IMG/VR virus record: IMGVR_UViG_3300029705_000062
Strand: one strand, 5' to 3'
DNA: 64,000 bases
Origin: a virus
Positions 1 to 57,283 of this stretch are shown here, in pieces. Each line of letters starts with the position of its first letter. Within the stretch, counting starts at the first letter, position 1. The notes under the pieces were generated by a model. That model was not told the DNA's origin, did not search any database, and was given only the letters and a program-made list of their open reading frames with translations. Made by a program: the position numbers and the translations under genes.

Positions 1-1
1 G

Positions 2-151
2 ATGACTGCTGATAGTGCAACAAAAGGTGTTGTATCTATGTTAGCAGGATTTAACTTAAGTCCACTAAGAGAAATGCAAGTAGAAGTAAATGGCATGACT
101 CAAAAGACAAATGAACTGACAAATGCAATGGATATGGTCAACCATGTGGGT
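2..151 (+). CDS. Tail tape measure protein (TMP), exon 1; 5' end lies upstream of the window
   Basis: Frame 2 is open from the window edge (..NELTNAMDMVNHVG) and hits TAA at 152. It joins 518.. to give the TMP-typical ..NHVG|NNFAISTEGIINAMQSGG.. Confidence 0.7.
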
Positions 152-517
152 TAATTTATAGCTCCTGCATATAGTGATATATGCTGAAAATTTCTTGAAT
201 TGCTAAAAAATCCTTAGAGATTGTTAAACTACAACATGACTGGAAACGGTGAGTGTGAATGTTTTAAAAATTAACAATATTGGACAATTAGCAGGGAAGA
301 TTCTAAATTATAATAATTTTAATAAAAATGCATATAATAAAATTGTAACAAGAATAACCTTCAACGACTATTGCAGACATGCAAGTACATCACAAGCTAT
401 GGGTGATGGAAGTGGGAAACATCCCTAGTGGATGAAGATATAGTCTACTCTATATGGAAACATATAGCAGTTCATAGGAGAACGGTGTATGTGTAGCGAA
501 CATATATGAATAAAAGG
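152..517 (+). mobile_element. Group I intron, ORF-less, in the TMP gene
   Basis: R-like box ttcaacgacta (360-370) and S-like box aagatatagtct (435-446) can form P7 (GACTA/TAGTC). GAAA-capped hairpin at 450-467. The 5' exon ends in T151 and the intron ends in G517. Removing it restores the TMP frame. Confidence 0.7.
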
Positions 518-672
518 AATAACTTTGCAATTTCAACAGAAGGTATTATAAATGCAATGCAAAGTGGGGGTACTGTTTTACATTCATATGGAATAGATAT
601 GGAAAAAACAATTGCTCTTATCACTGGTGCAAATAAGACCTTACAAGACCCTAGTGTTACTGGGAATGGGCT
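518..672 (+). CDS. TMP, exon 2
   Basis: Same frame as track ORF 506..694, but the ATG at 506 is intronic. Encodes NNFAISTEGIINAMQSGG..ALITGANKTLQDPSVTGNGL. Confidence 0.7.
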
Positions 673-1968
673 AAGATTTTGGCGTTCTATGTAGAAATAT
701 ATAGAAAGATAAGAGGGCAAAATCGGTCATAGTTATTGTGAAATAACTGGTAAGAAAGTTTAAATCTTGGTATAAAAAATAAAAAATAGTAATATAATTA
801 CATAGGAGGTGTATCTGAATATGGCGAGAAGATTCTCATATGAAGAAGTTAAAACCTATGTACAATCAAAGGGAGTTGAGTTAGTAAGCACAGAATATAT
901 AAATGGGAAAATTCCATTAAATTTTATATGTAAATGCGGAAAACCATTTAAAAGAAATTTAAAAAATTTTAAATACAATAATCTGTGTTTAAGGTGCGGT
1001 AGTAATTCTCTTTCTTATGAAGAGGTTAAAGAATACATTGAGTCAAAAGGGTGTAAATTAATAAGTGAAGAGTATGTAAACAATGAAACTGAATTGGAGG
1101 TTAAATGCCCCTGTTCAAAAACTTACTTTGTAATGTTTAGGGATTTTAAATCTAAAAAAAGATATAAGTGTCCTACATGCAATAAAAGACCAAACTACAC
1201 ATATGAAGAGGTTAAACTTTTTGTGGAAGGTAAAGGATGTAAATTAATCAGTAAAACTTACATTAATAATGCCACTAAATTAGATATTGTATGTAAATGT
1301 GGAGAGCCATTTAAAAGAAGGTTTAATAGTTTTAAAGACTCTCAACAATATTTTTGTTTAAAGTGTAGTAAAACTTCAAAAGGTGAGTTAAAAATAAAGG
1401 AAATATTAACTAACTATAAAATTAACTTTATACACCAATATAAGTTTGATGATTGTAAATTTAAACATCCTCTTGTTTTTGATTTTTACTTACCTGAATA
1501 TAATATATTAATAGAATATGACGGAAGACAACATTTTGAAATAGTTAAAGCATTTGGAGGGTTAGATGAATTTATTAATATTAAAATAAGGGATACTATA
1601 AAAAATGAGTATTGTAAAAATAATAATATAAAACTAATAAGAATACCTTACTGGGAATTTAAAAACCTAAAAAAACATTTAACTAAAATATTAAATGAAA
1701 ATATCAAGATAAAATAACACCGAGGTAAGTCAAAGAAGTAAAGAACTTTGACCACCGTAACGCATAGGATTTGAAACTATGCTTTTTTTTATGAAAAAAG
1801 TATAGAATATAATAATCCCAAGAGTGTCCTCCACCTGACCATTAAGTTGAAGGTGAAAATGTATGCTAAACAGGGTATGAAAAGACATACCGATAACTTT
1901 AGTAAAATAAAGAAATGAGGGAAACCTCCTGAGCCTAAGATAAAAAGCTTAGGGATAATAACAATTTG
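673..1968 (+). mobile_element. Group I intron carrying a homing-endonuclease ORF, in the TMP gene
   Basis: Splice model ..GGGCT|a...g|AAAATCT gives ..VTGNGL|KSIAINMAGIKAD.. The exon ends in T672 and the intron in G1968. Stable hairpins include GTGA (731-748) and GAAA (1917-1928) tetraloops, plus 1934-1953. Confidence 0.62.
821..1717 (+). CDS. Intron-encoded putative homing endonuclease: three zinc-ribbon repeats plus a C-terminal PD-(D/E)XK / Vsr-like nuclease domain
   Basis: RBS taggagg at 803-809. Three ~60-aa repeats (SYEEVK..ESKG..LIS.EY.N....L...C.CG..F......C..C), then ..FDFYLPEYNILIEYDGRQHF..LIRIPYWEF. Located inside an intron. Confidence 0.6.
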   Translation: MARRFSYEEVKTYVQSKGVELVSTEYINGKIPLNFICKCGKPFKRNLKNFKYNNLCLRCGSNSLSYEEVKEYIESKGCKLISEEYVNNETELEVKCPCSKTYFVMFRDFKSKKRYKCPTCNKRPNYTYEEVKLFVEGKGCKLISKTYINNATKLDIVCKCGEPFKRRFNSFKDSQQYFCLKCSKTSKGELKIKEILTNYKINFIHQYKFDDCKFKHPLVFDFYLPEYNILIEYDGRQHFEIVKAFGGLDEFINIKIRDTIKNEYCKNNNIKLIRIPYWEFKNLKKHLTKILNENIKIK

Positions 1969-4900
1969 AAAATCTATTGCCATTAATATGGCAGGTATAA
2001 AAGCTGATGCTTATACAGGCGAACTAGCTTTAAATAAAACAGCTCTTGCTCTTAAAGAAATAGCAAATATAGATGTCTACTCTGATAAGAAAAAGGGTGA
2101 GATAAAAGATATGGTTTCTATCCTTGACGAACTGTATGAACGTTGGGGAGATTTTACGGAAGAGGAACAGCTTGGACTAGCTGAAAGTATAGCGGGTAAG
2201 CAACAGTCCAAAGTTTTCCAATCTTTAATGACAAACTACAAAGATGTTTTATCTGTTAGAGAGCAATTATCTAATCAGGAACATTTTGGTAGTGCAGAAA
2301 GAGAGAATACTCAATACTTAGATAGTATCAGTGGTAAACTAAATGAGCTTAAGCAAACATGGATTTCTATATTAGATACATTTGCAAATTCAGATAGTAT
2401 AAAGAGTGCATTAGATGTGCTAATATCTGTATCTGAAGGTGTGGAAACAGTTGTAAAAGCTTTGGATGATGCAGGAATATTATTACAAGCTACTTTCACA
2501 GCATTTACATCAGGTGGAAGTCTACTTAAGAATCTAGCAGGATTTGGTGAAAGTTCTTATCAAATAAGACAAGTTGGAAATTCATTACAGCTTGTTGCAA
2601 CTCAAGCTAGTGCAGGAAATATACCACTAAAGCAAATGTTTAGTGGATTTACTAAGGGAACTACAGTAACTCAAAAACTTGGTAATGGATTAAAAACACT
2701 TGGTAAGTCTATGACTGCAAATTTAATACCAAGTTTTAAAGGTATGCTTTCAGCAGGATTAAAAGGCATGGCTGTGTCAGCAGTGATTACAGGTATTGGA
2801 TATGCACTTGATAAAACTGTAAATAAGTATAAGAATTTAGATAAGGAGTTACAGGCTCAAGCTGATACTACAGCTTCGCAACTAGAAGGATATAAAAAGC
2901 AAAAAAGTAGTTTAGAAGCTTTAGCAGATCAGTATGATACATTAGCTAAAAAATCTAATAAAACTGCTGAGGAACTTGCAACATTTAATGAATTAAAACA
3001 TCAAATTGCAGATTTATCTCCTGATTTGGTAATAGGTTATGACAGTGAGAATAATCCTATACTAAACTTAAATGGTAGCTTAGAAACATATATATCAAAC
3101 TTAGATGATGCCATTACTAGACAAAGAACTTTACTAGCAGGAGATAGTATGGCAGTTGGTAAAAATGCACTTGATAGTTTAAGTAGCACTTTAAACTTTA
3201 ACTTAACTCCTGATTTTAAATTAGATGATAGTGCTTTAAAAGAACAAGATGAAGCTATAGGTACTGCTAGGGAAAATTTAGTTAAAAAGCTTAATAAAAT
3301 AAATGAAGGACTTAACTTCAAAAGCCTTGAAGGAGAGTTAAAAAGTTATGCTCAACAAAATGACAAATACAATGAGCAGATAGTAAAGAGCTATCAAAAA
3401 GTTCAGGAAGCTCATGCTAAGATAACTGAACAAACATCAAAAGCAAAACAAGGTATAAATGCTCAATTAATGGACACTTCTGAAATGAAGAAAGCAGGGG
3501 AAGAAGTTCAAAAACTTGGAGCAAAAATGATTTCTGCTTTTGACTGGTCAGAGGTGGATTCAAATAGAGTTGACCAAATGGTTTACAATATGTCTAAAAA
3601 TCTTACTTCAGGGGAGTTTGATACAGCACTACAAAAAGTTGCGGAACTTAGACAAGAGCTTGAAGAAACTTATGATGTTGAAAAGTATGAATCACAAATA
3701 GATAAGTTCGTACCTCAAGTAGCAGATTTCTTAGGTGTATCAGAAGACATGGCTAGGTCTATGTTAAAAGTTCCTGAGATAATGAAGAGTTCAGAAGATG
3801 CTTTAGATCAGTTCCTTAGAACTATGGGTAAAACTAAAAAGTCTTTAAACTTTGATGTTGAAGCTCAAAATTTAGCGGAACAGTTCTATGCTGTTAATGA
3901 TGCAATATATCAATTAGCAGATACCTCAAATCTTGTAACAATAGATAATAAAATACAATTAAATCCTGAACTTGTTTTAAACACACTAAATAATGAATCT
4001 ATTCCTGAGCAAATAAGGAAATTATTAGGAGAGTTTAATAAAGACGGAGTTGTTGATGTTGGCGAAGTAGAACTTATGCTAGATGTTATGACAGCATTTA
4101 AATTAGGGGACACTCACCAGTCAAAAGAAATATTGGCACAAGTTCAAGAGGAGTTAGATAAAACATTAGGTGAAGGTGTAATAAATGTAAAAGACCTTAA
4201 ATTTGATGTTAATGGAAAAGTTGAAAATGTCAATATAGATAGCAAGGAACTTGAAGAAAAATTATCTGTACTTGGTGATAAGAAAGAATTAAAAACTCTT
4301 TTCACAACTGAGGTTATAGGATTAGATAGACTAGAATATTATACAGAAATTGTAAATAAGCTTCCTGCTGATTCTGAACATACAGAGAAATTTATAGTTG
4401 ATAATCAACAGGCTATATCTGAATTAAATAACTATAAAGAAGTAAAGGAATGGATAATAGCTCATCCTGAAGTTATTTCTAAATATAGATTAAATGTAGA
4501 AAAAGACCCTGAACTTAAAACTGCCTTAGAAGAATTTGAAAAGAACAACGGTAAAACAAGTGAAATTAAGGCTAAAGTAACAGAAGAAGGGGCAGATGAA
4601 ACTAACCAAAAACTTGAGGAAACAAAGAATAAAGCTGATGAGCTAGATAATAAAGATATTAACTTAACAGTTAATAATGGAGAATTACAAGGCTCAGTAG
4701 AAGATTTTAATAAACTTATAGAATACTCATCTAAATTAAAAGATGGTGAATATAAGTTATCTTTTACCTCTGACACTGGTGAATCTATAAACCAAATAAA
4801 TAATCTTAAAAATGCTATAAATGACCTTTCAGGTGCATTTAGTTCTTTACCTAGTGTAACAGTAAAAATTGAAACAGCACTTGCTAGTCAGAATATAACA

Positions 4901-7900
4901 GGATTAAGAAATAATATAGAAAGTTTTAAAACTTTAGCAGGTGGATTACAAACATTAGTATTTAAGACTGATACTGCACTTGCTAGTAAGAATGTTACAG
5001 GATTAAGAAATAATGTAGATAGTTACATTAAACAAAGAGCAGGGAAATCTTATTCTACAAGATTTAACACTGAGACAGCCTTAGCTAGTAAAAATGTTAC
5101 TGGTTTAGCAAATAAGGTTTCTAGTTATGTAAGAAGCTATGGTAATAGAACTATTAAGACTACTTTTAGTGTGGTAACAAAATATTCTACACAGGGAACT
5201 CCTACAACTCAAAGCAAAGGAGCAAAAGTTACTGGAAGAGCTATTCCTACATATGTTCCTGAATCATATGAAGTGGCACAGGTAAATGCTTCTCCTTTAA
5301 GTGAGTTTGCCAATCAAGTTCAAAGTGATACTGTAGCAATACAACGTATGGCAAGAACTGGTCAGGGAGTTTCAGAAGCTGTATCATCATATAGTTCTTC
5401 TATGGCTAGTATATCATCAAGAGCATTAACAAAAGCATTAGATAGTAATAAAGTTATTGATATGCTAAATCTTGATGTTGATCCTTTTAAAGATTTAGAA
5501 GATGTTTTAGAAAGAATTTCCAGTGAGTTAGATTTACTTAGTAAAAAAGCTGACTTAGCTTTTGGAAATGAAAAAATAACATATCTTAAAAGACAAGTAG
5601 AACTTCTTAAACAACAACAGCAAATCCAAAATAAACTAAGTAAAGATTATGCAACTCAACAAAATGAGTTAAAGTATTACTTAGGAAAAAAAGGATTTAC
5701 CTTTAACAGTCAAGGTGATGTAACTAATCAAGTTGATAAGTTATATCAAATGGAAAAATACGTTAAACAGCTTGAAGATAAAGTTAATGCACAGGGAGAT
5801 AAGAAAAATGAAGCTTTATCTAAGCAGTATGAAAGTGCTAGAGATGAATTAGAAAAAACTAAGGAAGTCTTAGAAGAGTATGTTAATAATAATTCTAAGG
5901 GTGTTACTGGTGCTACTAAGGAATGGTACGAACTTCAACAACAAATAAATGAAGCTCGTATGGAGATAATTCAAGCAACTATAGATGCTAAGAATTTTAA
6001 GTTTGAGATAGGTGCTAAAAAGTTTGAAGCAGAAGTTGATAAATTATCTAATGCAATTAACTTAATAGATAAACAGATTGAATATGCTTTTGGAGATGAA
6101 AAAGATAAGTTATTCAAGAAGAAGATAGAGTTATTAAAGAAACAGCAAAAAGAAGTTCATAATTTAGCTAACCAATATAGGGAACAGGCTAAAAGTATAG
6201 GGCAATTTTTAAATCAACAAGGTTTTATAATTAATTCCAGTGATGGAAGTATAGGTAATATAGAACACCTAGAGAGCTTTAAAAACAGTGGAATATATGA
6301 AGAAATAACTGAACAACTAGAGAAGTATATAGAATTAACTCAAAGTAAAATACCTGACCTTCAAGAAGAATGGTGGGAACTAAGAGAAGCAATAGATGAA
6401 GCTAGAATTGCTACTTTAGAAGCAAAAGATGAAATGTCTGATTTAGTATTAGAAATAAATATTTCTAAACTAGATACTGCTCTTAAAAAGATAAAGACTG
6501 AAATCAATAGACTAGAAAGAGAAATTGATAAAGCCTTTGGTAGCAAGAAAGAAGGTTTATTAAATGATAAGATAGATAAGTTAAAAGAAGAGCAAGATAA
6601 ACTTCATCAAATGGCAAATGAATATAGACAGCAAAGGCAAGAAATAGCTAACTTCTTAAATTCAAAAGGGTTTATAATTCATCCTGATGGCTCAATAGGA
6701 AATCCTGAATTTATCCTTAGCTTTAAAGAAGACCCTGCTCTAATGGAGTATTTACAAGGTCTTATAGATAAACATACTAGCTTAGGTGATAAAATAGCTG
6801 ACCTTGGAGAAGATTGGTGGAGTGTTCAAGATTCCATAGAAGATACAAAAGATGCTATAGAAGAAGCTAGAAAAGAATTAGAAAAATTCTTAAATGAAGC
6901 GAAAATTGAAGCACTGCTTGACCAGTTTAATGACCTTGCTCATAAACTTGATTTAATAGATAAAAAACTTAAACATGCAACTGGCAAGGATAAGTTAGAT
7001 TTATTAAGTCAAAAACTTGAGTTAATAAAAGAACAACAAATAGAATTACAAAAACATTGGGAGTTCTTTACTAATAAAAAGAATACTCTTCAAATGGAGT
7101 TAGGTCAACTAGGATTTACATTTGATGCAGATGGAGATATTACAAATTATGTAGAACAACTTGAAAGTATAGCTAACTCATCTGATGATTTTGAGGAAGT
7201 TAAAGATAAGTTAGAAGAATACTTTGATATTCAAAATGATAGATTACCTAGTATTGAAAGTGATTGGCTAGACCTTGAGAATACATATAAAGATGTCTTA
7301 AAAGAACAGCTTAATACAACTAAGGAAATTGAAGATAAAATTACTGAAATGTATAAAAAGCAAGTTGAAGACAGAATAGATGCAATGAACAAGGAAACTG
7401 ATGCCAAGATAAAAGCTCTTAAAAAGCAACAGGATGCCTATAATAAATATCGTGAAGAAACTGATTACAAAAATGAGTATGAAGATAAATTATTAGAAAT
7501 AAATGATATACAAAGGCAACTTGATATAGCAATGAAAGATACTTCTTTGGCAGGGCAAAAGAAAGTTAAGGAGCTACAAAAGCTATTAGCTGATGCTCAA
7601 AAGGAGTTAGATAAATTCACTCAAAATAAAATTGATAGTGATATCAATGATATGTTTGATAAAGAGAGTGAAAGAATAGAAGAAGAAAATGATAAGGCTA
7701 TAGAAGAGCTTGAGAAAGAATGGTCAGATAGTAAGATAGCTGAAATGGTTGCACAAGCATTACAAACTGGTATATTTACAGGAATAGATGGAAGTGTACA
7801 AGACCTTCAAGATGCTATGTTACAATTTGCCAATGATACTGGTGAATTGTTTGGAGTTATGGGAACTGTTATAAAATCCGAGTTAATAACTAACTTAGAT

Positions 7901-8188
7901 ATAGCAAAAAATACAGTTAAAGAACTTAACAAGATAATTAAAGAATTAGACTTGGAACAATTTGCGGTACTATCAGGTGCTTCAAGTTTTAGTAGAACTA
8001 TTTCAGGAGTAAGTATGGAAAGTTATACAAAGCCTATTCAAAATAATTATAGTCCTGAAATAAGATTTGATTCTCCATTAATTCATATAGAAGGAAATGT
8101 TGATAATGATGTATTAATGACTCTTGAAAGCTACGGAGAAAAATTAACTAAAGATATAATAAATCAAATTGCAGGAGCAATAAGATAA
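1969..8188 (+). CDS. TMP, exon 3 (about 2,072 codons)
   Basis: Very long coiled-coil ORF with internal repeats, directly upstream of Dit/Tal-like genes. The in-frame sequence KSIAIN precedes the track ATG at 1988. Confidence 0.85.
5520..7150 (+). repeat. Four ~140-aa coding repeats inside the TMP (coordinates approximate)
   Basis: Recurrent ..D[KL]AFG.[EK]K..L...[IVL]ELLK.QQ......A..Y......I..FL...GF[IT][IF]..[DS]G.I[GT]N.. A separate set of three ~33-aa repeats ([ED]TALAS[QK]N[IV]TGL.N) lies at ~4871-5170. Confidence 0.7.
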
Positions 8189-8240: not shown

Positions 8241-8954
8241 ATGATTTTTTATTCAGATAAGTTTTACTATAATGGCTTATATTCACAAGACTTAGGAGTT
8301 CTTTTAGTATCTGAAAGTACAGATGTATTAAATGAATACGGTATTTCTTATATGAGTGGAGAAGAAAGTGAAATAGTCCTTAGCTTTTGTTATGTAGATA
8401 GTGTAGATCAACCACTGCCTTGGAATAATGAGAAATTAGAAAGTATTTTAGGGTGGCTTATGGCTGATGAATACTTAGAGTTTATAAGTGAAGATAATAA
8501 GGATATAGTATATTTCTTAAAAGGTATAGGATATAAAAAAAGATTTACTCCTGATATGAAAGGTCTTATAGATGTTACATTTAAAGCTTTAAGTGGTTAT
8601 GGATATAGAAACTATGTTAAAAAAATTGAAAAGCCAGTTGGTGAGTTTGTTTTATTAAATAATAGTAATATAAATAAGCCTTGTAAACCTATTATAGAGT
8701 TAAGTAATATATCTAGTGAAACAATTCAAATAACAAACTTAACTACCCAAAAAGCTCCTTTTGTAATTAACACTCAGTCTAGTAAATCAATTGTTATAGA
8801 CAATGAAACAGGAGTTATCACTAATGATAATAATGAAAATTTAATAATGAGTAGCAATAGGAAATGGATAGAACTTATAAAAGGTGATAATACAATGCTA
8901 GTAGAAGGTGACTGTGATATTACCTTTAAAGTCCATTGTCCAATTATGGTGTAA
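8241..8954 (+). CDS. Distal tail protein (Dit)-like phage tail family protein
   Basis: RBS gggggtgg. N-terminus is MIFYSDKFYYNGLYSQDLGVLLVSES.. Sits immediately after the TMP gene. Confidence 0.65.
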   Translation: MIFYSDKFYYNGLYSQDLGVLLVSESTDVLNEYGISYMSGEESEIVLSFCYVDSVDQPLPWNNEKLESILGWLMADEYLEFISEDNKDIVYFLKGIGYKKRFTPDMKGLIDVTFKALSGYGYRNYVKKIEKPVGEFVLLNNSNINKPCKPIIELSNISSETIQITNLTTQKAPFVINTQSSKSIVIDNETGVITNDNNENLIMSSNRKWIELIKGDNTMLVEGDCDITFKVHCPIMV

Positions 8955-38191: not shown

Positions 38192-38992
38192 CTAGAAATT
38201 AACCCATACAAACTCTTGTCCTTTATTTAGTTCACCTTCATTTGTCTTTTGGCTTCTCTTTGAATAATTTCCAAGTAGCTCCTTTTTCCAACCATGTTCG
38301 AGTAACTTATTGTATATTGGATGGTCATATCCACTTAGTATCACCTTGCCTTTTATATTCAATAGAGTGTCAACTAATTCTTTGTGTTGAGTATCGTTCA
38401 TTTCATGGTCATAAGATTTCTTTTGCTTTCTTGTTTCTGTTATGTATGGAGGGTCTAAGTAAAACAAAGTGTCATTTTTATCATATTTATTTATTAATTC
38501 AATTATATCTAGGTTTTCTATTTGAACTTCTTTTAATCTTTCAATTGCTCCACTTAAATTTTCCTCTATGTTACCCAACCATCTACTAACTGATTGGCAC
38601 ATACCTCTTCTACTTTTTGATTTAGCATAACACCAACCACCATTACTAGCTACACTTTGCATAGTTCTAACATAGAATTTTCTTGCTTTTTCTATTTCAT
38701 CAATTTCACTCATCCATAATTTACTATCTTCAAATTCTTTTCTTGAGTATGGAGTTAATGATAGTTTTCTTATAAACTCTTTATTTTCTTCCCTAAGCAT
38801 TTTAAAGATTAAATATAAACCACTATGTAAATCATTGTACACTTCCATTTCACTTCTATCTTTTCTAAAAAGAACATGACCTGCACCACCAAATCCCTCA
38901 ACATACATTTTGTGAGGTGGAAATATGTCAATTATATCTTTAGCCATATAATATTTTCCTCCATACCAATTCACAGGACTCTTAAACTTCAT
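38192..38992 (-). CDS. dam: DNA adenine methyltransferase (Dam / D12 class)
   Basis: NWYGGKYYMAKDI..YVEGFGGAGHV.. and FYLDPPYI. Confidence 0.75.
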   Translation of the reverse strand: MKFKSPVNWYGGKYYMAKDIIDIFPPHKMYVEGFGGAGHVLFRKDRSEMEVYNDLHSGLYLIFKMLREENKEFIRKLSLTPYSRKEFEDSKLWMSEIDEIEKARKFYVRTMQSVASNGGWCYAKSKSRRGMCQSVSRWLGNIEENLSGAIERLKEVQIENLDIIELINKYDKNDTLFYLDPPYITETRKQKKSYDHEMNDTQHKELVDTLLNIKGKVILSGYDHPIYNKLLEHGWKKELLGNYSKRSQKTNEGELNKGQEFVWVNF

Positions 38993-39963: not shown

Positions 39964-41266
39964 CAATTGTGTTATCATTGAGCTTTTTATCTCAACTTCT
40001 ATATATTTCTATATAGTTCAGCATATGTTTTCAACCCTTATATACTTGGGGTTGCTCCGACCTCTTGGCTAGATTATATTTTAAGACATTTGTTTTTTTA
40101 ATATTTCATCAAACTTTTCTTTTTTTCTTTCTAAAAAAATCTCAGGATTATCACTGTAAAATAGGTTATATATTTTTTTACTTGACAGTTGACTATATAG
40201 AATATGATAAAGATTTCTATCCTTATATTTTTTTACACCAACCTTTGGGACACCATTCTTATAAAGTTCTTCAACAATTTGACACATCATTTTTTCACTT
40301 CCACTAAAAAATCTAGTTCTAAGCATAGGTATCTTTGATTTTTTTGTCCATTGTTCACCAACACTTCCATCACCATCAAAATAACCTCTTATAAAATCAA
40401 GTTTATATTCACTTGGAACTTTATCCATAGTAACTGTAAGACTTTTTCTTTGTGTTACCCCTATGTCAATTAAATCATTAACCATGTGCTTTGAAGATAT
40501 TAATAACTCACAACTAGGGTGATATTTTTCCCCACATTTTTTCATTAGTGTTTTCACTTTATAGGTGCTGTCAAGCTCTTTGTTTATTTTGTGCAATAGG
40601 TTAATATCTTGCTCTTGTAAAGCAATTCTTAGGTAACCATAGTCAGATATATAACCATCTGCTGAAAGAAAACCGACTATATAAGCCATATTTTTAGTCC
40701 ATGTTTTAAAATATTCATGATTTAAAAAATATTTTCTACCATGCTTATCAGGATTATACTCTCTGTGTTCAAGTATTTTTGATTCACTTCTTGTTCTAAG
40801 TTTGATGTTGTTGCGAAGTAATCTAAGTTTTATAGTTCCATATGTAACACCATATTTTTTTCCAAGCTCCAATAGATTCATGCCATTTAAGTATAACTCT
40901 ATCATTTCTTTTTCATCTATTTTATGAACTGTATGACTTTCACTTGCATTTCTCCTATTTATACCACAAATGTCTAATCTGTTTCTTATAGTACCTGTGC
41001 TGACATTATAAATCTTTGCAATTTCTTTCATAGATTTACCACTTAAATATAAGTTTACAATATCTTCATTTTTAATATCTTTTCTCATAATAAACCTCCT
41101 TTCTTATATTATATGCCTTAATTTCACTAGCTATGCTTTGCCCCTGACTAAACTTTTAAATTTAGCCTTCGGTTCAAGTTACCATATCCTGTGGAAGGGA
41201 CTTAGGCTTTCTTGCTTAATTTCGGAGTTATTCAATATACATTACTGTATAAGGTGGCACTTATTT
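39964..41266 (-). mobile_element. Group I intron with a LAGLIDADG endonuclease ORF, splitting the ATPase Walker A codons
   Basis: Exon 1 ends ..TATGGT (T) and is followed by an in-frame AAATAA. The intron ends ..CAATTG (G). The spliced product reads MLYG|NAKSGKST = GxxxxGKS. Its 3' block is homologous to TMP intron 2. Confidence 0.62.
40081..41088 (-). CDS. LAGLIDADG homing endonuclease with N-terminal HTH repeats
   Basis: RBS aaggagg. Two LAGLIDADG motifs: MAYIVGFLSADGYIS and FIRGYFDGDGSVG. HTH repeats: GKSMKEIAKIYNVSTGTIRNRL and LLELGKKYGVTYGTIKLRL. Confidence 0.8.
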   Translation of the reverse strand: MRKDIKNEDIVNLYLSGKSMKEIAKIYNVSTGTIRNRLDICGINRRNASESHTVHKIDEKEMIELYLNGMNLLELGKKYGVTYGTIKLRLLRNNIKLRTRSESKILEHREYNPDKHGRKYFLNHEYFKTWTKNMAYIVGFLSADGYISDYGYLRIALQEQDINLLHKINKELDSTYKVKTLMKKCGEKYHPSCELLISSKHMVNDLIDIGVTQRKSLTVTMDKVPSEYKLDFIRGYFDGDGSVGEQWTKKSKIPMLRTRFFSGSEKMMCQIVEELYKNGVPKVGVKKYKDRNLYHILYSQLSSKKIYNLFYSDNPEIFLERKKEKFDEILKKQMS

Positions 41267-41780: not shown

Positions 41781-42536
41781 TTATATATCCCATTTTGGAA
41801 GTGGCTTACCACAACACATTTTCCCTTCATGACATTTACCATATCTACAACTTGCACCTGCATTTTTGAATAAAGCAGGAGCAACATCTTGAACTTCAGC
41901 TATCATAAGTCTAGCTAATTCCCTTATTTCTGCTTGAGACCTATTGCAATCTCTATGAGAGAAGAAGTTTAATAAGCTTCTACCGTTCATAGTAACAACA
42001 ATTTTAGTTTCACAAGCATTTGGAAGAACAGCTCTAGCATTTTCATTGGCAACTTTTTCAGCATTCATTCCATATGTGTGATAATTTGTAGACTCTACAA
42101 AGTCTTGTATATTTACTTGCCATTTCTTATACATATTATGTATAGTTTTCATATCCTCTTCAAACTCACCAACATATCTTGATCCATAAGCTTTGTCCAT
42201 ATCCTCTATTATAGAAGGAACTATAAAATCAAAAGTTTTATCAAGATTAACATACCTTTGACTTTGTTGAGAATAACTAGCTAACCTATGTCTTACTATT
42301 TGATGAGAACATGCCCTAGATATTCCTTCTATTGCAAAAGTGAATGAACAATGTTCTAGTGGACTTTCATGACCTATATCTGCCAACATATTTACAAATC
42401 TGCTTACATTTTCATCAGTTAATTTTTCTGATATGCCTTCCACTCCAACCTTGCTATAACAAAGTTTCCCTGCCTTTGCTACAACCTCATCAGGATTAGG
42501 AGTATGTGCAATAAGTTTTACTTTTAATTTACCCAA
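41781..42536 (-). CDS. thyX: Flavin-dependent thymidylate synthase ThyX
   Basis: ThyX motif QIVRHRLASYSQQSQRY. There is an extra Cys-rich C-terminal tail, CRYGKCHEGKMCCGKP. Confidence 0.8.
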   Translation of the reverse strand: MGKLKVKLIAHTPNPDEVVAKAGKLCYSKVGVEGISEKLTDENVSRFVNMLADIGHESPLEHCSFTFAIEGISRACSHQIVRHRLASYSQQSQRYVNLDKTFDFIVPSIIEDMDKAYGSRYVGEFEEDMKTIHNMYKKWQVNIQDFVESTNYHTYGMNAEKVANENARAVLPNACETKIVVTMNGRSLLNFFSHRDCNRSQAEIRELARLMIAEVQDVAPALFKNAGASCRYGKCHEGKMCCGKPLPKWDI

Positions 42537-52068: not shown

Positions 52069-53456
52069 CTACATAGAACGTTCTAATGTAAGGTACATTA
52101 ATCCATTTGGTTGAACACCTTCAATTCTATTTAAAGAATGTATATCCCCATATGCTCTAGCTCTAAATACATCTCCATCTCTAAATCCTCTTACTAAAAG
52201 CATAGTTCCCCTACTAAACCATGACTTTTCAATTACAGTTTTCTTACCTGTATTTTCATCAACAGTAGATAATTGTTTATTATAAAAACTAAATGCTCCT
52301 TTTGAGAACTTTATATTAATAACACCATATTTTGTAAGTAAAGATACAAAATGCTTATTAGCATCTTTATCTATAACTGTACCTATTAGAGTATCTATTT
52401 TAAACCTTTTAAACGGTCTGCCATTTCTACTTACACCCTCTTCTGATACTATAGGAACTTCAGGTAATTCAAAATAATTTACAATGCTATAAGATTCTTC
52501 ATCTACATCTTCAAGCTCATGTCTATCATTGTAATAAGATACTGTTTCCATCTCCCAGTGTTCAACATTTGATGACTTAACATACTTTATCCAATCCTCT
52601 CTAAGAGTAAGTCTATTCGCAAGTTCTAAAGCTTCTTCACTAGATAGCCAATTTAAAAATTTAACAGCTTTTTGTTTAAAATATTTTTCAAGAGATTTAT
52701 CAGATACTATCATTACACCTTCCTCAGTGAACATATAATCAACATCCTCTTCAAAGTCATTTAAAAAATGTTCTTCTAAAAATGGAAGTGCAGTTACAGG
52801 ACAAACTCTATGCCATTTTTTTGTTCCAATAGTTTTATATAAAAATGATTTATCTGTAACATACTTTCTAAAGCTATATAAAGACAATTCATACTCAAAT
52901 TCTTTAGGTATTTCACCATGAGCTGAAATCTGAGGTATATTAGCTGTAGTTAATTTATTCTTTAATTTATCGCAACTTAGGATTATAAAATCTTTCATAA
53001 TTTCAATTCTTTGTTTAGACTCGATTTCATCAAAACATCCTGATTTAACTAGATTTACCATTTTACCTTTTGGTATATTATCTTTGTTTTTATCATAGAA
53101 ATCTTTTAATGATGTATAAGGTCTATTTGAAATTATATGGTTTGCATCCTCATGATTTATTTTACTTATTCCTTTAAATCCAAATAGTATTCTGTTTTTA
53201 TCTGTATCAGGGTTAAATAATAATTCAGAATAATTTATATTAGGTAAAGATACATTAACATTATTTTTCTTCATATCTCCTATAGCAACACTTATCTTAC
53301 CATAGTCTGTTGATCCATCTTCTGACCCTGCATTTACTATTAAACATGCTGTATTCCAATACATACTAGGATAATTCATATATAAATTCATAGTTTGTAT
53401 AGCTATTATAGTGTAACTCAAGCTATGGAGCAAACTGAATGAATCGAATACACCCC
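52069..53456 (-). CDS. dnaE: DNA polymerase III alpha subunit (DnaE-type), exon 2
   Basis: ..FDSFSLLHSLSYTIIAIQTMNLYMNYPSMYWNTACL.. continues the DnaE finger region. The 5' junction is modelled to +/- a few nt. Confidence 0.65.
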
Positions 53457-54834
53457 CATTTTCATGGTACTTTAACAAGTTTTATTTCAAACTTGGGTCT
53501 AGACTATATCTTATTTTGTAAATTGTATTCATCTAAATACTGCCACTTGTAACCAAAAGCAGTTTTATGCCTTCCTTTTAATGCATGTAAAATATTACTA
53601 CTCCATTTTTTAGCTCCAATGAATTTTAAAGCTTCTTCTTGACTTTTAAATTCCCTTATTTTTTCACCATTTAAACTAAGTTGAACAATGGGAGTTTCCT
53701 TTTTAAATGGATTTATTACTATTTCTATATTATTTTTTTTCTTGTAAATATAATCATCATAAAGCATCCAAAAATATCCATAAGCAACCCCATCTGATTT
53801 AAGCTTTCTTATAATTCGACCGTTATTTCTATCTCCACCACCAACAGATTTATAGGCTTCTGATTCATCTTTAAATACATTTAATAATTCTCCTTCAAAG
53901 CTTAATTGAGCAATTTTACACCCCCTAAAATTAACCTTTGAATATTCATCAAAATTAATTTCATTACAGTGAGAGAAAATATGAGTGCCTTTCACTATCT
54001 TTTTATTTATGCATTTTGTTATTGTACTATGTGAAAAACCTGATATTTGACATGCTTCTGTGATAGAATTTACCTGAAATACAAGTTCACCAGTAATACG
54101 ATAGCAATATACTTTTTTCATTTGCCCTAAAAGGCACATCTCAACTGCATGTTCCATATTTTCTTTCATAGATACAAGTTCTAGATTATCAACTCTATTG
54201 TCCCACTTTAAACCATTTTTATGATTAATATGATGTTCATTTTTAAAACCTTCTAAGAATACTTCTGCCACTTTTCTATGATTGTTTTTAATTCTACCAC
54301 AACTTAAATATCCATTAGATTGATTTACTGTTATATTCATAATTTTATTATTTTTTCTAAATCTACCAAAATTACTAACTTCATATTTAGCAACCTTAGT
54401 TTTTTTGTAGTATCTCCACTCTTCTTGATGCAATTCACTTTCTGTTAGCTCTAGTGTGTATGTATTTTTCATACCTTCAATTTTTTTAAGTTTCATAGTT
54501 TTATCACCTCCTTTATATTATATGTAAAATAAATATTCTCATGCAAATATACATTCTGTTTAAATACAATTTACAAAACCTTGGCACTTCCAATGGTGTT
54601 GACCTCCATTGTACTTTACTCCCTTACATCTTTAAGATGTGGTTTCATTAGTCGTTGCACCTTCCTATTAGTAATAAATAGGCTTGGCACAGGATTATCA
54701 TACCTTCTATACAATAGTGGCTTCAGACATCCCCTGTTAGCAACATCTCTATTTATCATTTCCTATAAATCCTAAACCGTAGATGTTACACCTCTTTAAC
54801 ATGAGTTCACCAAGTTTACCCTGAGCTATTTACA
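53457..54834 (-). mobile_element. Group I intron with an HNH endonuclease ORF, in dnaE
   Basis: On the minus strand: R-like TGCAACGACTA (54659-49) and S-like AAGATATAGTCT (53512-01), which overlaps the HNH stop codon. Hairpin CAAGTTT-gaaata-AAACTTG follows. The exon ends GCTGGGT and the intron ends ..AAAATG. Confidence 0.65.
53504..54496 (-). CDS. HNH homing endonuclease (NUMOD4 + HNH + NUMOD1/IENR repeats)
   Basis: RBS ggaggtg. Motifs EWRYYKKTKVAKYEVSNFGRFRK and HINHKNGLKWDNRVDNLELVSMKEN, plus repeated ..F.S..EA...[VI]G.. modules. Confidence 0.75.
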   Translation of the reverse strand: MKLKKIEGMKNTYTLELTESELHQEEWRYYKKTKVAKYEVSNFGRFRKNNKIMNITVNQSNGYLSCGRIKNNHRKVAEVFLEGFKNEHHINHKNGLKWDNRVDNLELVSMKENMEHAVEMCLLGQMKKVYCYRITGELVFQVNSITEACQISGFSHSTITKCINKKIVKGTHIFSHCNEINFDEYSKVNFRGCKIAQLSFEGELLNVFKDESEAYKSVGGGDRNNGRIIRKLKSDGVAYGYFWMLYDDYIYKKKNNIEIVINPFKKETPIVQLSLNGEKIREFKSQEEALKFIGAKKWSSNILHALKGRHKTAFGYKWQYLDEYNLQNKI

Positions 54835-57283
54835 ACCCAGCTTGTGGCATTATTACCATATCCCATACATAATCTATTATATTAACTCTAAAACCTTTTT
54901 CTAAGGACACCTCATAAATAAGCTTTTTAAGATTATCTACATCTCTAAATTTCTTTTTTGCTATTACTTTCCTAGCATAATTCGCATCCCTAAGACTTAA
55001 ACCTATTGCCATAAGAGTTTTCATCATGGCTTCCTGTGTACTAGCAACACCATAATCAACTAATAAATATTCCTCTAGAAGTTGCACTTCATCTTCCAAC
55101 AGTCCATACCCTAACATCTCTTCATACCACTTGGATATATCAGATTTGAATAAAGTAAACTTATCAAGTGGAGTTAATTGTCCTTCTTGTCCCATAAGTC
55201 TCATTAAGCAGTTTGTGGCTGTAGCTTCATACAAGTTTATAGGTTTAGTTTGTTTTATAGCAGATATCCCTACTTGTGTCGAAAACTGAAATAAGTCTAC
55301 TATTTCTCCACTATATGCTTTTTCCCACATAGTTTTATCTAAATATTCTATTTTATCAGGATGAAGATATTCATCATAGTTTGCTTTTAATGAGCCTTTG
55401 TCTTCAATAACACCCTTTTCTATCAACAGTTCTAAACATGTTTGCATTTTGGCTTGAGCTTCTGTCCACAGTATATCAATTTTTAATCCGCTTTGATAGT
55501 CTGAATCTTGCATTGAAAATTGAGTTATTGGAAGACCATTTGACGTTTTCATCATAGCATTACAACTATATATTCCATCATTGAATATATATACTGCCGA
55601 AGCATGACTTGAACGTTTATCAATAAGACCTTCAAACATAAGAGCAGTTTCTTTAAGACCTTCATACTTTGCAACTTCATTTACAAACTCAGTAATAGGT
55701 TTTCTATCCTTTTCATCATTACCATTGAAACATTCATCAAGAGTCCATAAAGCACCTCTCTCTACAGGTATCATTGATGACAGATACATACCTATGTCAT
55801 TATCTATGCCAAGTCCTCTACATGCAGATTGAATAGCTGATTTACTTGAGCAAGTTCCAAATGTAGCACAGTTATATACATTGCCAAATTCTTTTCTAAA
55901 CTCTTCCATTATTTCTTCTTTTTTCAATGGATTGAAGTCGCTGTCAATATCTGGCAATTCTATTCTATCGACCGACAAAAATCTCCACCAAGTATCAAGA
56001 CCATGTTTTATAGGGTCAACACCTGTAATATCCATTAAATAATTTGATAACCAACCGACTGCCGAACCTCTTCCCACACCCACAAGAGAATGTTTCCAAG
56101 CTAGTTCTATCATACGTTGAACAAGTATAAAGTATGAACTAAGTCTTTGTCCCATACCTTCACTTACTAGATAAAGTTGTTCTGCTTCTATATTTAATCT
56201 ACTTAAATATTCATCATTCCAAAGACCTTTTTCTTCTAGTGATTGTAGGCAATATCTTATCCAATAATTATCTTCTTTATGCTCTATATTTAATAACCTA
56301 TCTATATGCTCATACCCTGTATTAAAATACCATTTAACTTTATTTAAGTCAAAGTTACATTTTGGAACTTGTTGAGGTTTATATAAACTATACATTTCAC
56401 ACTTATCTGCAATCCCAACAGAATTTAATCTCATTTGTTCTATTTCATCATCTGTAAATGATATACTAAGATAAGATTTTATTTCATCATATGGCATCAT
56501 GTAAGTTGTCTTATAAAAATCATCAACCTCTCTATCTCCATCCTGTGAATTTAAAAAAGCTTTATGGAATATTTTATCTTCTTTATTTAAGTAATGAACA
56601 TCATTAGCAAATGTCAAAGGCACATTATAGGCTTTAGATAATTTTTTTAAAGTATTGTTATAATACACTTGTTCATCATCATCATTAGGTTGCACTTCAA
56701 AATAAAAGTCATCTCCAAATGCACTTATACAAGAGGTTATAAAGTTGTGCATTTCAAGTTTCACAGGAAGCTCATCTTCATTATCCTCTATAACTTTTCT
56801 CCATATATTAACTTTCTTACCTAAGTAACTTCCAAGACATGCAGTTGTTGCAATTAAATGCCCTTTGTTTTCATTTACTATATTAAAAAATTCATTAAAC
56901 TCTATAGGAACTCTATCCATGTTTTTATAATTATAACTATTTTCCCAAGCTGTTGTAGAAATCTTTCTTAAAATTTCATGTCCTTTTAAATCCTTTGCTA
57001 ATAAAACAAAATGATAATACTCACCTTTATTTTCAAGGTTTGGAGTTAAATAAATTTCCTCTCCTAATATAACTTTAAATCCTTCAGGTAATTTGTTGTT
57101 TTCAATTATTTGATTTATGTGTTTTTCTGCAAAAACATGAGAACTTAAACATGCATGGTCTGTAATTGCAATTCCATTTAAGTTCATTTCTATTGCTTTA
57201 TCTATGGCTTTTTCAACTTTAACAATACTGTCTTTAAGTCTTATATTAGACAAGTCAGTGTGTAAATGTGTAACCGTATACAT
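54835..57283 (-). CDS. dnaE: DNA polymerase III alpha subunit (DnaE-type), exon 1 (PHP + palm)
   Basis: N-terminal PHP motif VTHLHTDLSN..AITDH. The reading frame stops 2 codons after the modelled splice site. Confidence 0.75.

Follow-up and report, generated by a model that had tools for sequence, protein, structure and literature searches.

The IMG/VR virus record IMGVR_UViG_3300029705_000062, a stretch of 64,000 nt (the window; all positions are numbered on its full length), opens inside a phage tape measure protein (TMP) gene whose reading frame is interrupted twice. Are the three pieces the exons of one protein, separate genes, or what is left of a gene no longer in use? An earlier reading made from the letters alone (the sequence-only reading) had proposed two group I introns, here called intron 1 (152-517) and intron 2 (673-1968). 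We read the RNA motifs directly from the window sequence. The interpretation that we hold with high confidence is that the gene yields a single long TMP from a pre-mRNA carrying two group I introns 155 nt apart, that both are spliced out, and that intron 2 is mobile. Feature coordinates are collected in Table 1.

The interrupted gene and its exon junctions

The exon 1 frame enters at the window start and terminates at TAA 152-154. The exon 2 frame (NNFAIS..., from 518) lies in the listed open reading frame (ORF) 506..694 and ends at TAG 692-694, 20 nt inside intron 2, while the exon 3 frame (KSIAINMAG...) is open from 1969 to 8188, the ORF 1988..8188 being its ATG-started part. Deletion of 152-517 and 673-1968 joins the pieces as ..MVNHVG|NNFAIS.. 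and ..TGNGL|KSIAINMAGIK... At the RNA level the joins would be GTGGGT|AATAAC (151|518) and GGGCT|AAAATC (672|1969), and the protein would read ..NHVGNNFAIS.. and ..TGNGLKSIAINMAG.. across them. The frame breaks at 152 and 673 and the resumptions at 518 and 1969 were all correctly placed in the sequence-only reading, which had also pointed to a U at the end of each 5′ exon and a G at the end of each intron; these are T151 and T672, and G517 and G1968. The predicted junction peptides of the spliced TMP are TLQDPSVTGNGLK and a long tryptic peptide with ..MVNHVGNNFAISTEGIINAMQSGGTVLHSYGIDMEK.

The gene is that of a phage tape measure protein, as had been proposed. Pfam PF10145 (PhageMin_Tail) matches the spliced protein at 61.4 bits (cut-off 33.2, 1.5e-16) over residues 3-178, spanning both junctions, and several PHROG tape measure families also cover it across the junctions. 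A Dit-like gene (8241-8954) and tail genes follow downstream of exon 3. Of the PHROG families, 21411 and 10871 start at the exon 3 ATG residue, and 13137 stops just before junction 2, from which we conclude that split annotations of this TMP are already in the databases.

The nearest deposited TMPs, found by tblastn against deposited phages, are those of large Clostridioides difficile siphophages, at 37-51% amino acid identity. Among these, site 1 is uninterrupted in phiCD211 (SNYAGNNFAITT) and site 2 in LIBA2945 (KVGNGLKSVAINLAGMK). A search of IMG/VR with a degenerate junction-2 pattern gave a TMP that is continuous at both sites, on contig L016. Over 231 residues the spliced window TMP aligns with it without a single gap, at 49% identity (LLNYAGNNYAISS and KVGNGLKSIAINMAGI). 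Since this alignment is gapless over both sites, it fixes the junctions at 151|518 and 672|1969; the exact splice junctions are thereby established, and the comparison with an uninterrupted homologue that the sequence-only reading had suggested finds both of its junctions right to the base. The junction-2 pattern matched only this 49%-identical contig in IMG/VR, the corresponding degenerate junction-1 pattern had zero matches there, and the metagenome protein scan confirmed no near-identical intron-less allele.

Positions 1-2100 of the window are 100% identical to contigs from three independent JGI metagenome samples, the longest of 126 kb. On identical contigs (L012-L014; upstream part, L012 1-1914) the exon 1 product has at least 1606 aa. 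With exon 2 (155 nt) and the coding part of exon 3 (6,217 nt) added, the spliced TMP would reach at least ~3,730 aa. That length would place it among the longest TMPs; gene callers give only the 2066-aa piece.

Table 1. Coordinates of the TMP exons, of the predicted introns with their RNA elements, and of other interrupted genes in the window
Feature	Position	Strand	Remarks
TMP exon 1, 3′ end	1..151	+	ORF 2..154; Pfam PhageMin_Tail and PHROG TMP families; start upstream of window
Intron 1, predicted ORF-less group I intron, IA2-like phage type	152..517	+	366 nt; Rfam RF00028
Intron 1 P1	148-153 with 159-164	+	6 bp, U151.G161 wobble
Intron 1 R element / S element	360-370 / 435-445	+	
Intron 1 P7	366-370 (5′ strand), 441-445 (3′ strand)	+	GACUA, UAGUC
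Intron 1 P9 hairpin	452-467	+	GAAA loop
Intron 1 further hairpin	485-508	+	ahead of terminal G517
TMP exon 2	518..672	+	155 nt, NNFAISTEGI...PSVTGNGL
Intron 2, putative group I, family undetected by RF00028	673..1968	+	1296 nt
Intron 2 P1	670-674 with 679-683	+	including U672.G681
Intron 2 P10	3′ exon 1969-1975 with 674-680	+	AAAAUCU; 7 bp
Intron 2 P2	687-693 with 698-704	+	GAAA loop
Intron 2 P3	713-718 with 1826-1831	+	
Intron 2 P4	723-727 with 1719-1723	+	
Intron 2 P6	1724-1726 with 1754-1756	+	
Intron 2 P6a	1729-1735 with 1746-1752	+	
Intron 2 P7	1762-1766 with 1862-1866	+	
Intron 2 P7.1	1767-1771 with 1814-1818	+	
Intron 2 P8	1832-1836 with 1851-1855	+	
Intron 2 P9 and P9.x hairpins	after P7 3′ strand	+	terminal base G1968
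Predicted homing endonuclease gene	821..1717	+	298 aa; inside intron 2, P5 region
TMP exon 3	1969..8188	+	2073 codons including the split Leu codon, plus stop codon
Split DnaE-like DNA polymerase III alpha gene	52069-57283	-	N-terminal ORF 57283-54830 (PHP, DNA_pol3_alpha, finger); C-terminal ORF 53478-52069 (HHH_6)
HNH_3/NUMOD (I-HmuI-like) ORF	54496-53504	-	between the DnaE-like ORFs
Break in P-loop of AAA_24 ATPase gene	~39967-41262	-	5′ exon ..MLYG (~41340-41263), 3′ exon NAKSGKST from ~39966
LAGLIDADG_3 ORF	41088-40081	-	within the AAA_24 ATPase gene break

Two predicted introns and a putative endonuclease gene

Judged by its sequence, intron 1 belongs to the canonical group I introns. 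In a scan of 1-2200 the Rfam model RF00028 (Intron_gpI) matches it at 70.0 bits (gathering score 50, E 3.6e-17), the alignment covering 142-467 and model positions 1-253, the full length. The R and S boxes (GACTA, TAGTC) and the GAAA hairpin described in the sequence-only reading are in place. Its relatives by blastn are introns of Bacillus phages AR9, PBS1 and vB_BpuM-BpSp and of Staphylococcus phages. The P1 register with U151.G161 is kept in four homologues, among them contigs L003 and L018, two relatives of the window, and the second intron of phiCD211 (intron B), where it is down to 5 bp. An alternative register, U147.G167 with the 3′ site after G516, forms 7 of 7 pairs in the window, yet it loses the conserved Gly of ..AGNN.. 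and is absent from phiCD211 intron B and from L018; it was rejected. An ORF at 249-428 (59 codons) was tried as a gene; it has no family match in Pfam and was treated as spurious, and we count the intron as ORF-less for this reason.

Whole-window Rfam scans of the 64 kb (gathering threshold; E <= 1e-3) reported nothing, intron 1 included. The match surfaces only in scans of 2.2 kb or less, though it lies 20 bits above the gathering score. We attribute this to speed filters that lose AT-rich (31% GC) introns, and the absence of an Rfam hit in such windows therefore carries little weight.

For intron 2 no Rfam family of any kind matches in the Rfam scans. Since RF00028 is silent on it, its group I assignment rests on our own comparative model. 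A blastn search with its 3′ part (1715-1975) gives short ORF-less elements between the TMP exon halves of pCD1602_4, LIBA2945 and phiCD211, at 80-86% identity. At 70-75% identity there follow elements in the TMP genes of Staphylococcus phage 6ec, Streptococcus phage Javan355 and Caldibacillus phage CBP1, and in the terminase genes of Clostridium phage vB_CpeS-1181, Staphylococcus phage IMEP5 and Arcanobacterium phage TPWB06. The predicted architecture of this family has in its 5′ half P1 with U.G, P2 with a GAAA loop, P3, J3/4 AAAAU, P4 and a variable P5 region, where the ORF is located whenever one is present. The 3′ half has P6/P6a, J6/7, P7 (GCRUA/UAYGC), a P7.1 domain, P3′, P8, J8/7, P7′ and P9, and the intron closes with a hairpin with a AUAAAAAG loop, a tail ..AUAACAAUUUG and the final G. 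The strands follow one another as P3 5′, P7 5′, P3 3′, P7 3′, the pseudoknot that defines group I. The GNRA-capped hairpins noticed in the sequence-only reading are three in the window copy (GAAA 694-697, GUGA 739-742 and GAAA 1920-1923).

This structure was tested for covariation on a MAFFT alignment of 13 family members with the P5/ORF region removed, against 500 shuffles and against controls with the pairing partners slid by 1-3 columns. Standard pairs fill 96.5% of 780 cells (63 pairs, 13 members), against 34-43% in the slid controls; 45 of the 63 pairs show two-sided changes, and the observed measures were reached by none of the 500 shuffles. Changes on both sides occur in 6 of 6 pairs of P3, 8 of 10 of P6/P6a, 4 of 5 of P7.1 and 5 of 6 of P9, and P7 has an A-U to G-C switch in two sequences. 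All 12 informative sequences have the U.G at the 5′ splice site, and all 13 introns have the terminal G. A P10 of 3-8 bp adjoins the guide G in 14 of the 15 rows tabulated, the window included with 7 bp; the exception, TPWB06_a, has only 2 bp at the expected guide G. In several genes an ORF-less copy of 250-290 nt lies exactly at the joint between the exon halves. Covariation among the family sequences demonstrates the group I topology, and it supports, in line with the sequence-only reading, the assignment of intron 2 to group I in a family that RF00028 does not see.

Intron 2 carries an endonuclease gene with a Shine-Dalgarno sequence, AGGAGG 804-809, 11 nt ahead of ATG 821; a 10-bp stem (764-773 with 1701-1710) would loop the ORF out in the P5 region. 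In the protein, three zinc-finger/CapR-like repeats precede a C-terminal Vsr-like PD-(D/E)XK nuclease domain. It matches PHROG 559 (5e-71) and PHROG 9084 'homing endonuclease' (1e-30), and has more than 5,800 homologues, many with DUF4379 treble-clef zinc fingers, CapR and C-terminal RAP domains. Since Pfam gave only sub-threshold matches for it (RAP 0.019) and a PDB sequence search zero matches, we turned to structure prediction. An AlphaFold2 model made with 43 homologues has a mean pLDDT of 91, and Foldseek places its C-terminal domain with the I-Bth0305I catalytic domain (3r3p_B, TM 0.72 target-normalised, probability 1.00) and with Vsr (1vsr, 1cw0), at E-values of only ~1e-2 because the query is multi-domain. 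D221, E232, D234, H238, D258 and K261 are invariant in the 43 homologues. On its modelled structure the endonuclease is of the EDxHD/I-Bth0305I type with a Vsr-like nuclease fold, much as the zinc-ribbon plus PD-(D/E)XK-like protein of the sequence-only reading. It would be active on an intron-less TMP site, for which ...ACTGGGAATGGGCTAAAATCTATTGCC... (..CCTAGTGTTACTGGGAATGGGCTAAAATCTATTGCCATTAATATGGC..) is a candidate.

Predicted splicing and its alternatives

Several points weigh against the reading of one spliced TMP with two group I introns. Splicing and catalysis in vivo are deduced from sequence. For intron 1, the window forms an equally good P1 with U147 as the last exon base, and this register is excluded only by the protein alignment and by its weaker conservation in relatives. 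RF00028 has no match on intron 2 in scans of 1-2200 or 1700-1990 at E <= 10, the latter giving noise only, and it also misses the ORF-less phiCD211 relative (E <= 1). The Rfam check that the sequence-only reading had suggested came out positive for intron 1 (70 bits) and negative for intron 2, and a missing match was an outcome that it had named as speaking against its claim. Because the comparative analysis yields the full group I topology, we regard the miss as a blind spot of the model. The intron 2 structure was partly derived by eye from the same sequences that were used to test it; we hold it to be real because of the slid controls, the independent compensatory changes and the P10 result. 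The P1 of the window intron 2 has only three exon-side pairs, with an adjacent G.G mismatch. Finally, the in-frame ATGs at 506 and 1988 would allow separate translation of the pieces.

The weak P1 bears most directly on the idea that one of the introns, most likely intron 2, is decaying and no longer self-splices, so that the TMP would be non-functional or splicing would need a protein cofactor from the phage or the host. The guide GGCGU fits the AUGCU exons of the C. difficile phages but faces GGGCU in the window, which leaves the three exon-side pairs, and the missing RF00028 match points the same way. Against decay, the window copy keeps all its core helices and a 7-bp P10, the 6.2-kb exon 3 frame is unbroken, the same sequence recurs in the three metagenome samples, and a relative of only 72% identity (L018, a Logan contig) shares the layout, with both introns at the same two sites. 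We consider decay improbable.

The two ATGs would serve a gene in pieces, in which no RNA is removed and three polypeptides, the exon 1 product, 62 aa from ATG 506 and 2066 aa from ATG 1988, assemble non-covalently. Both codons are in frame, and the pieces are called as separate genes on the metagenome contigs, as they are in the annotation of 6ec, Javan355, CBP1 and phiCD211. ATG 506, which lies inside intron 1 and is the only one available to exon 2, has no Shine-Dalgarno sequence within 5-13 nt, and ATG 1988 likewise has none at working distance, whereas the endonuclease ORF does have one. Moreover, the breaks lie within a conserved domain, not at domain borders, and for both insertions the group I core, the U.G pair, the terminal G and P10 fall exactly where a gapless TMP is restored. 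This makes separate polypeptides very improbable, and even when they are taken together with the dead-gene reading the two are unlikely.

It is scarcely credible that intron 2 is not group I but another mobile insertion (a free-standing homing endonuclease gene flanked by a terminator or by hairpins) or a ribozyme of a new class, with boundaries that only imitate those of group I: the missing Rfam match and the 'terminator' feature that the phiCDIF1296T record has over the homologous element would suit this, against which stand the covarying order P3-P4-P6-P7-P7.1-P3′-P8-P7′-P9 with P3 and P7 crossing, an exon-final U paired to G, the terminal G, a P10 formed from the bases just 5′ of the guide G, and the short ORF-less copies exactly between exon halves in several genes.

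We therefore return to a single spliced TMP and to how it would be made. In a siphophage-like genome of ~126 kb, the late tail operon would encode one TMP of at least ~3,730 aa, with both introns inside the conserved PhageMin_Tail segment, 155 nt apart. Each intron would fold into a core with P1 placing a U.G at the 5′ site, a P3/P7 pseudoknot, a stacked P4-P6 domain, a P10 aligning the 3′ exon, and a terminal G. Two guanosine-initiated transesterifications would excise each intron and restore the TMP frame, and the in-frame stops at 152 and 692 would halt ribosomes at the intron entrances. Intron 2 would be the mobile element, its endonuclease cutting intron-less TMP alleles of co-infecting relatives and driving homing; ORF-less intron 1, 155 bp away, may hitch-hike in the co-conversion tract of intron 2.

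Related introns in this and other phages

The sequence-only reading had taken introns in the length-determining structural gene to be unusual. This does not hold, given a report of 2008, the annotation of phiCD211, and at least six further deposited phage genomes in which a TMP gene is split by the intron 2 family. Bacillus cereus group prophages have group I introns (IA1, IA2) at three TMP sites, up to two per gene, and in several prophages there are two; some of these (TMP-IVS1/IVS2/IVS3) have endonuclease genes and some do not, related introns have been retargeted between TMP sites via changes in P1 and guide sequences, and further introns lie in terminase and tail-tube genes (Tourasse and Kolsto, NAR 2008, PMC2504315). 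As with TMP-IVS1/IVS2/IVS3, the window's putative group I introns are inside the TMP gene of a siphophage, one with and one without an endonuclease gene. They differ in that the phage is unrelated and of another host group, the introns are 155 nt apart, and the endonuclease is of the EDxHD/Vsr type.

Closest to the window are the TMP genes of phiCD211/phiCDIF1296T, LIBA2945 and pCD1602_4 with their ORF-less copies of the intron 2 family, at the core identity given above. In phiCD211 an Intron_gpI is annotated between two TMP ORFs, and the phage also carries an IA2-type intron resembling window intron 1; the papers found on this phage mention only ClosTron group II introns and make no statement on a TMP intron. 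Unlike the window copy, those of the C. difficile phages have no endonuclease ORF; the family is unannotated in those records, and the insertion points are QNA|EKVG and KTIG|INM (phiCD211) and MDMLN|YAG (LIBA2945), against HVG|NNFA and GNGL|KSIA in the window. The TMP genes of 6ec (Sextaecvirus), Javan355 and CBP1 are broken by the same ribozyme family as intron 2. The 6ec site, LG|NNMA, corresponds to window site 1; 6ec and Javan355 have an endonuclease ORF in the same P5-region loop as the window, and the CBP1 copy is ORF-less. In contrast to the window these phages have a single intron each and differing endonucleases, and they are annotated as separate 'minor tail / HNH / tape measure' genes.

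The classical phage introns (T4 td, nrdB and nrdD, SPO1 DNA polymerase, Twort, the terminases of LL-H and Moonbeam, and the Cluster J introns) are self-splicing group I RNAs that also lie in conserved parts of essential genes, often with an endonuclease gene looped out of the core as in intron 2, although other genes are interrupted. Splicing in late structural genes has been shown by experiment for the capsid and tail gene introns of Cluster J mycobacteriophages (PMC3706429), whereas the window introns are predicted from sequence. TMP introns are common in phages of Gram-positive bacteria, and the finding made in the window is correct but ordinary. What sets the window apart is which two sites are occupied, that they lie 155 nt apart, and that an ORF-less IA2-type intron is combined with an endonuclease-bearing one of a second family.

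Several relatives carry these introns in pairs or at shifted sites. In phiCD211 (L001, LN681537.2) the single annotated 'Intron_gpI' gap at 4289-4880 holds two introns in tandem: at 4289-4576 a copy of the intron 2 family that is ORF-less and carries no annotation, over which phiCDIF1296T has its 'terminator', then a 33-nt mini-exon encoding EKVGTALKTIG, and then an IA2-type intron that Rfam scores at 41.7 bits, below the gathering score. LIBA2945 has its copy three codons upstream of window site 1 (N|YAG). The TMP gene of pCD1602_4 (L011 1332-2128) has two ORF-less copies ~240 nt apart, and the large terminase gene of TPWB06 (L010 161-1598) also has two, one ORF-less and one with an endonuclease ORF.

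Contig L003 (IMGVR_UViG_3300029305_008799), 84% identical to the window, has both introns. At 4650-4670 its exon before intron 2 ends in QDPTVV|, 12 nt short of the window's ..TGNGL|, and its guide has changed from GGCG to GACG, in keeping with GUU as the new end of the exon. This could be due to insertion of the intron four codons further upstream or to a deletion in the exon; the contig breaks off within the intron, and a search for a longer one found none. In L018 intron 2 is at the window's site.

Across these genomes of different Firmicutes phages, at least five staggered TMP positions are taken by the intron 2 family, which RF00028 does not detect and the GenBank records examined do not annotate: N|YAG (LIBA2945), G|NN (6ec), QNA|EK (phiCD211), possibly VV|GNGL (L003) and GNGL|KS (window). 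It is possible, though we put it forward only tentatively and with some doubt, that the conserved TMP segment from ..VGNNFA.. to ..GNGLKSIAINMAG.. is a landing pad on which introns settle at multiple sites by retargeting, with their P1 and P10 guides re-matched. Such re-matched guides would suggest reverse splicing or evolution of the guide sequence rather than endonuclease-driven homing. ORF-less introns, such as window intron 1 and the tandem pair of phiCD211, would spread by co-conversion beside endonuclease-bearing neighbours.

Two further genes of the window are interrupted. RF00028 partially matches the break in the DnaE-like DNA polymerase III alpha gene (27.7 bits, E 1e-4, at 54737-54648). 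With the R-like stretch 54659-54649 and the S element, which is exact (AAGATATAGTC, 53512-53502), this break is very likely the third group I intron of the window. The break in the AAA_24 ATPase gene is very likely the fourth, judging by a P3 of CUCCG/CGGAG and by its 3′ end, where J8/7-P7′, P9, the hairpin with the AUAAAAAG loop and the tail ..AUAACACAAUUG are all as in the intron 2 family. This stretch had no match in the whole-window Rfam scans, which covered it at the 64-kb scale only. Near this intron, on the minus strand, are two ORFs whose translations look by eye like a D12-class N6-adenine DNA methyltransferase (38192-38992, ..FYLDPPY..) and a ThyX-type thymidylate synthase (41781-42536, ..RHRLASYSQQSQRY..).

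Gene calling breaks up the TMP gene here, and those of several deposited phages, into two to four genes, and therefore the length of the TMP, and the tail length predicted from it, are underestimated. In the window the real TMP would have at least ~3,730 aa, not 2,066 aa, and the tail would be very long. RF00028 is blind to a common phage group I intron family; together with the loss to filters of a 70-bit intron in AT-rich 64-kb windows, this means that counts of phage introns are probably underestimates. With at least four predicted introns and three endonuclease families in 64 kb, this is one more intron-rich phage. The known picture, in which the targets of group I introns are conserved parts of essential phage genes, including structural ones, is unchanged.

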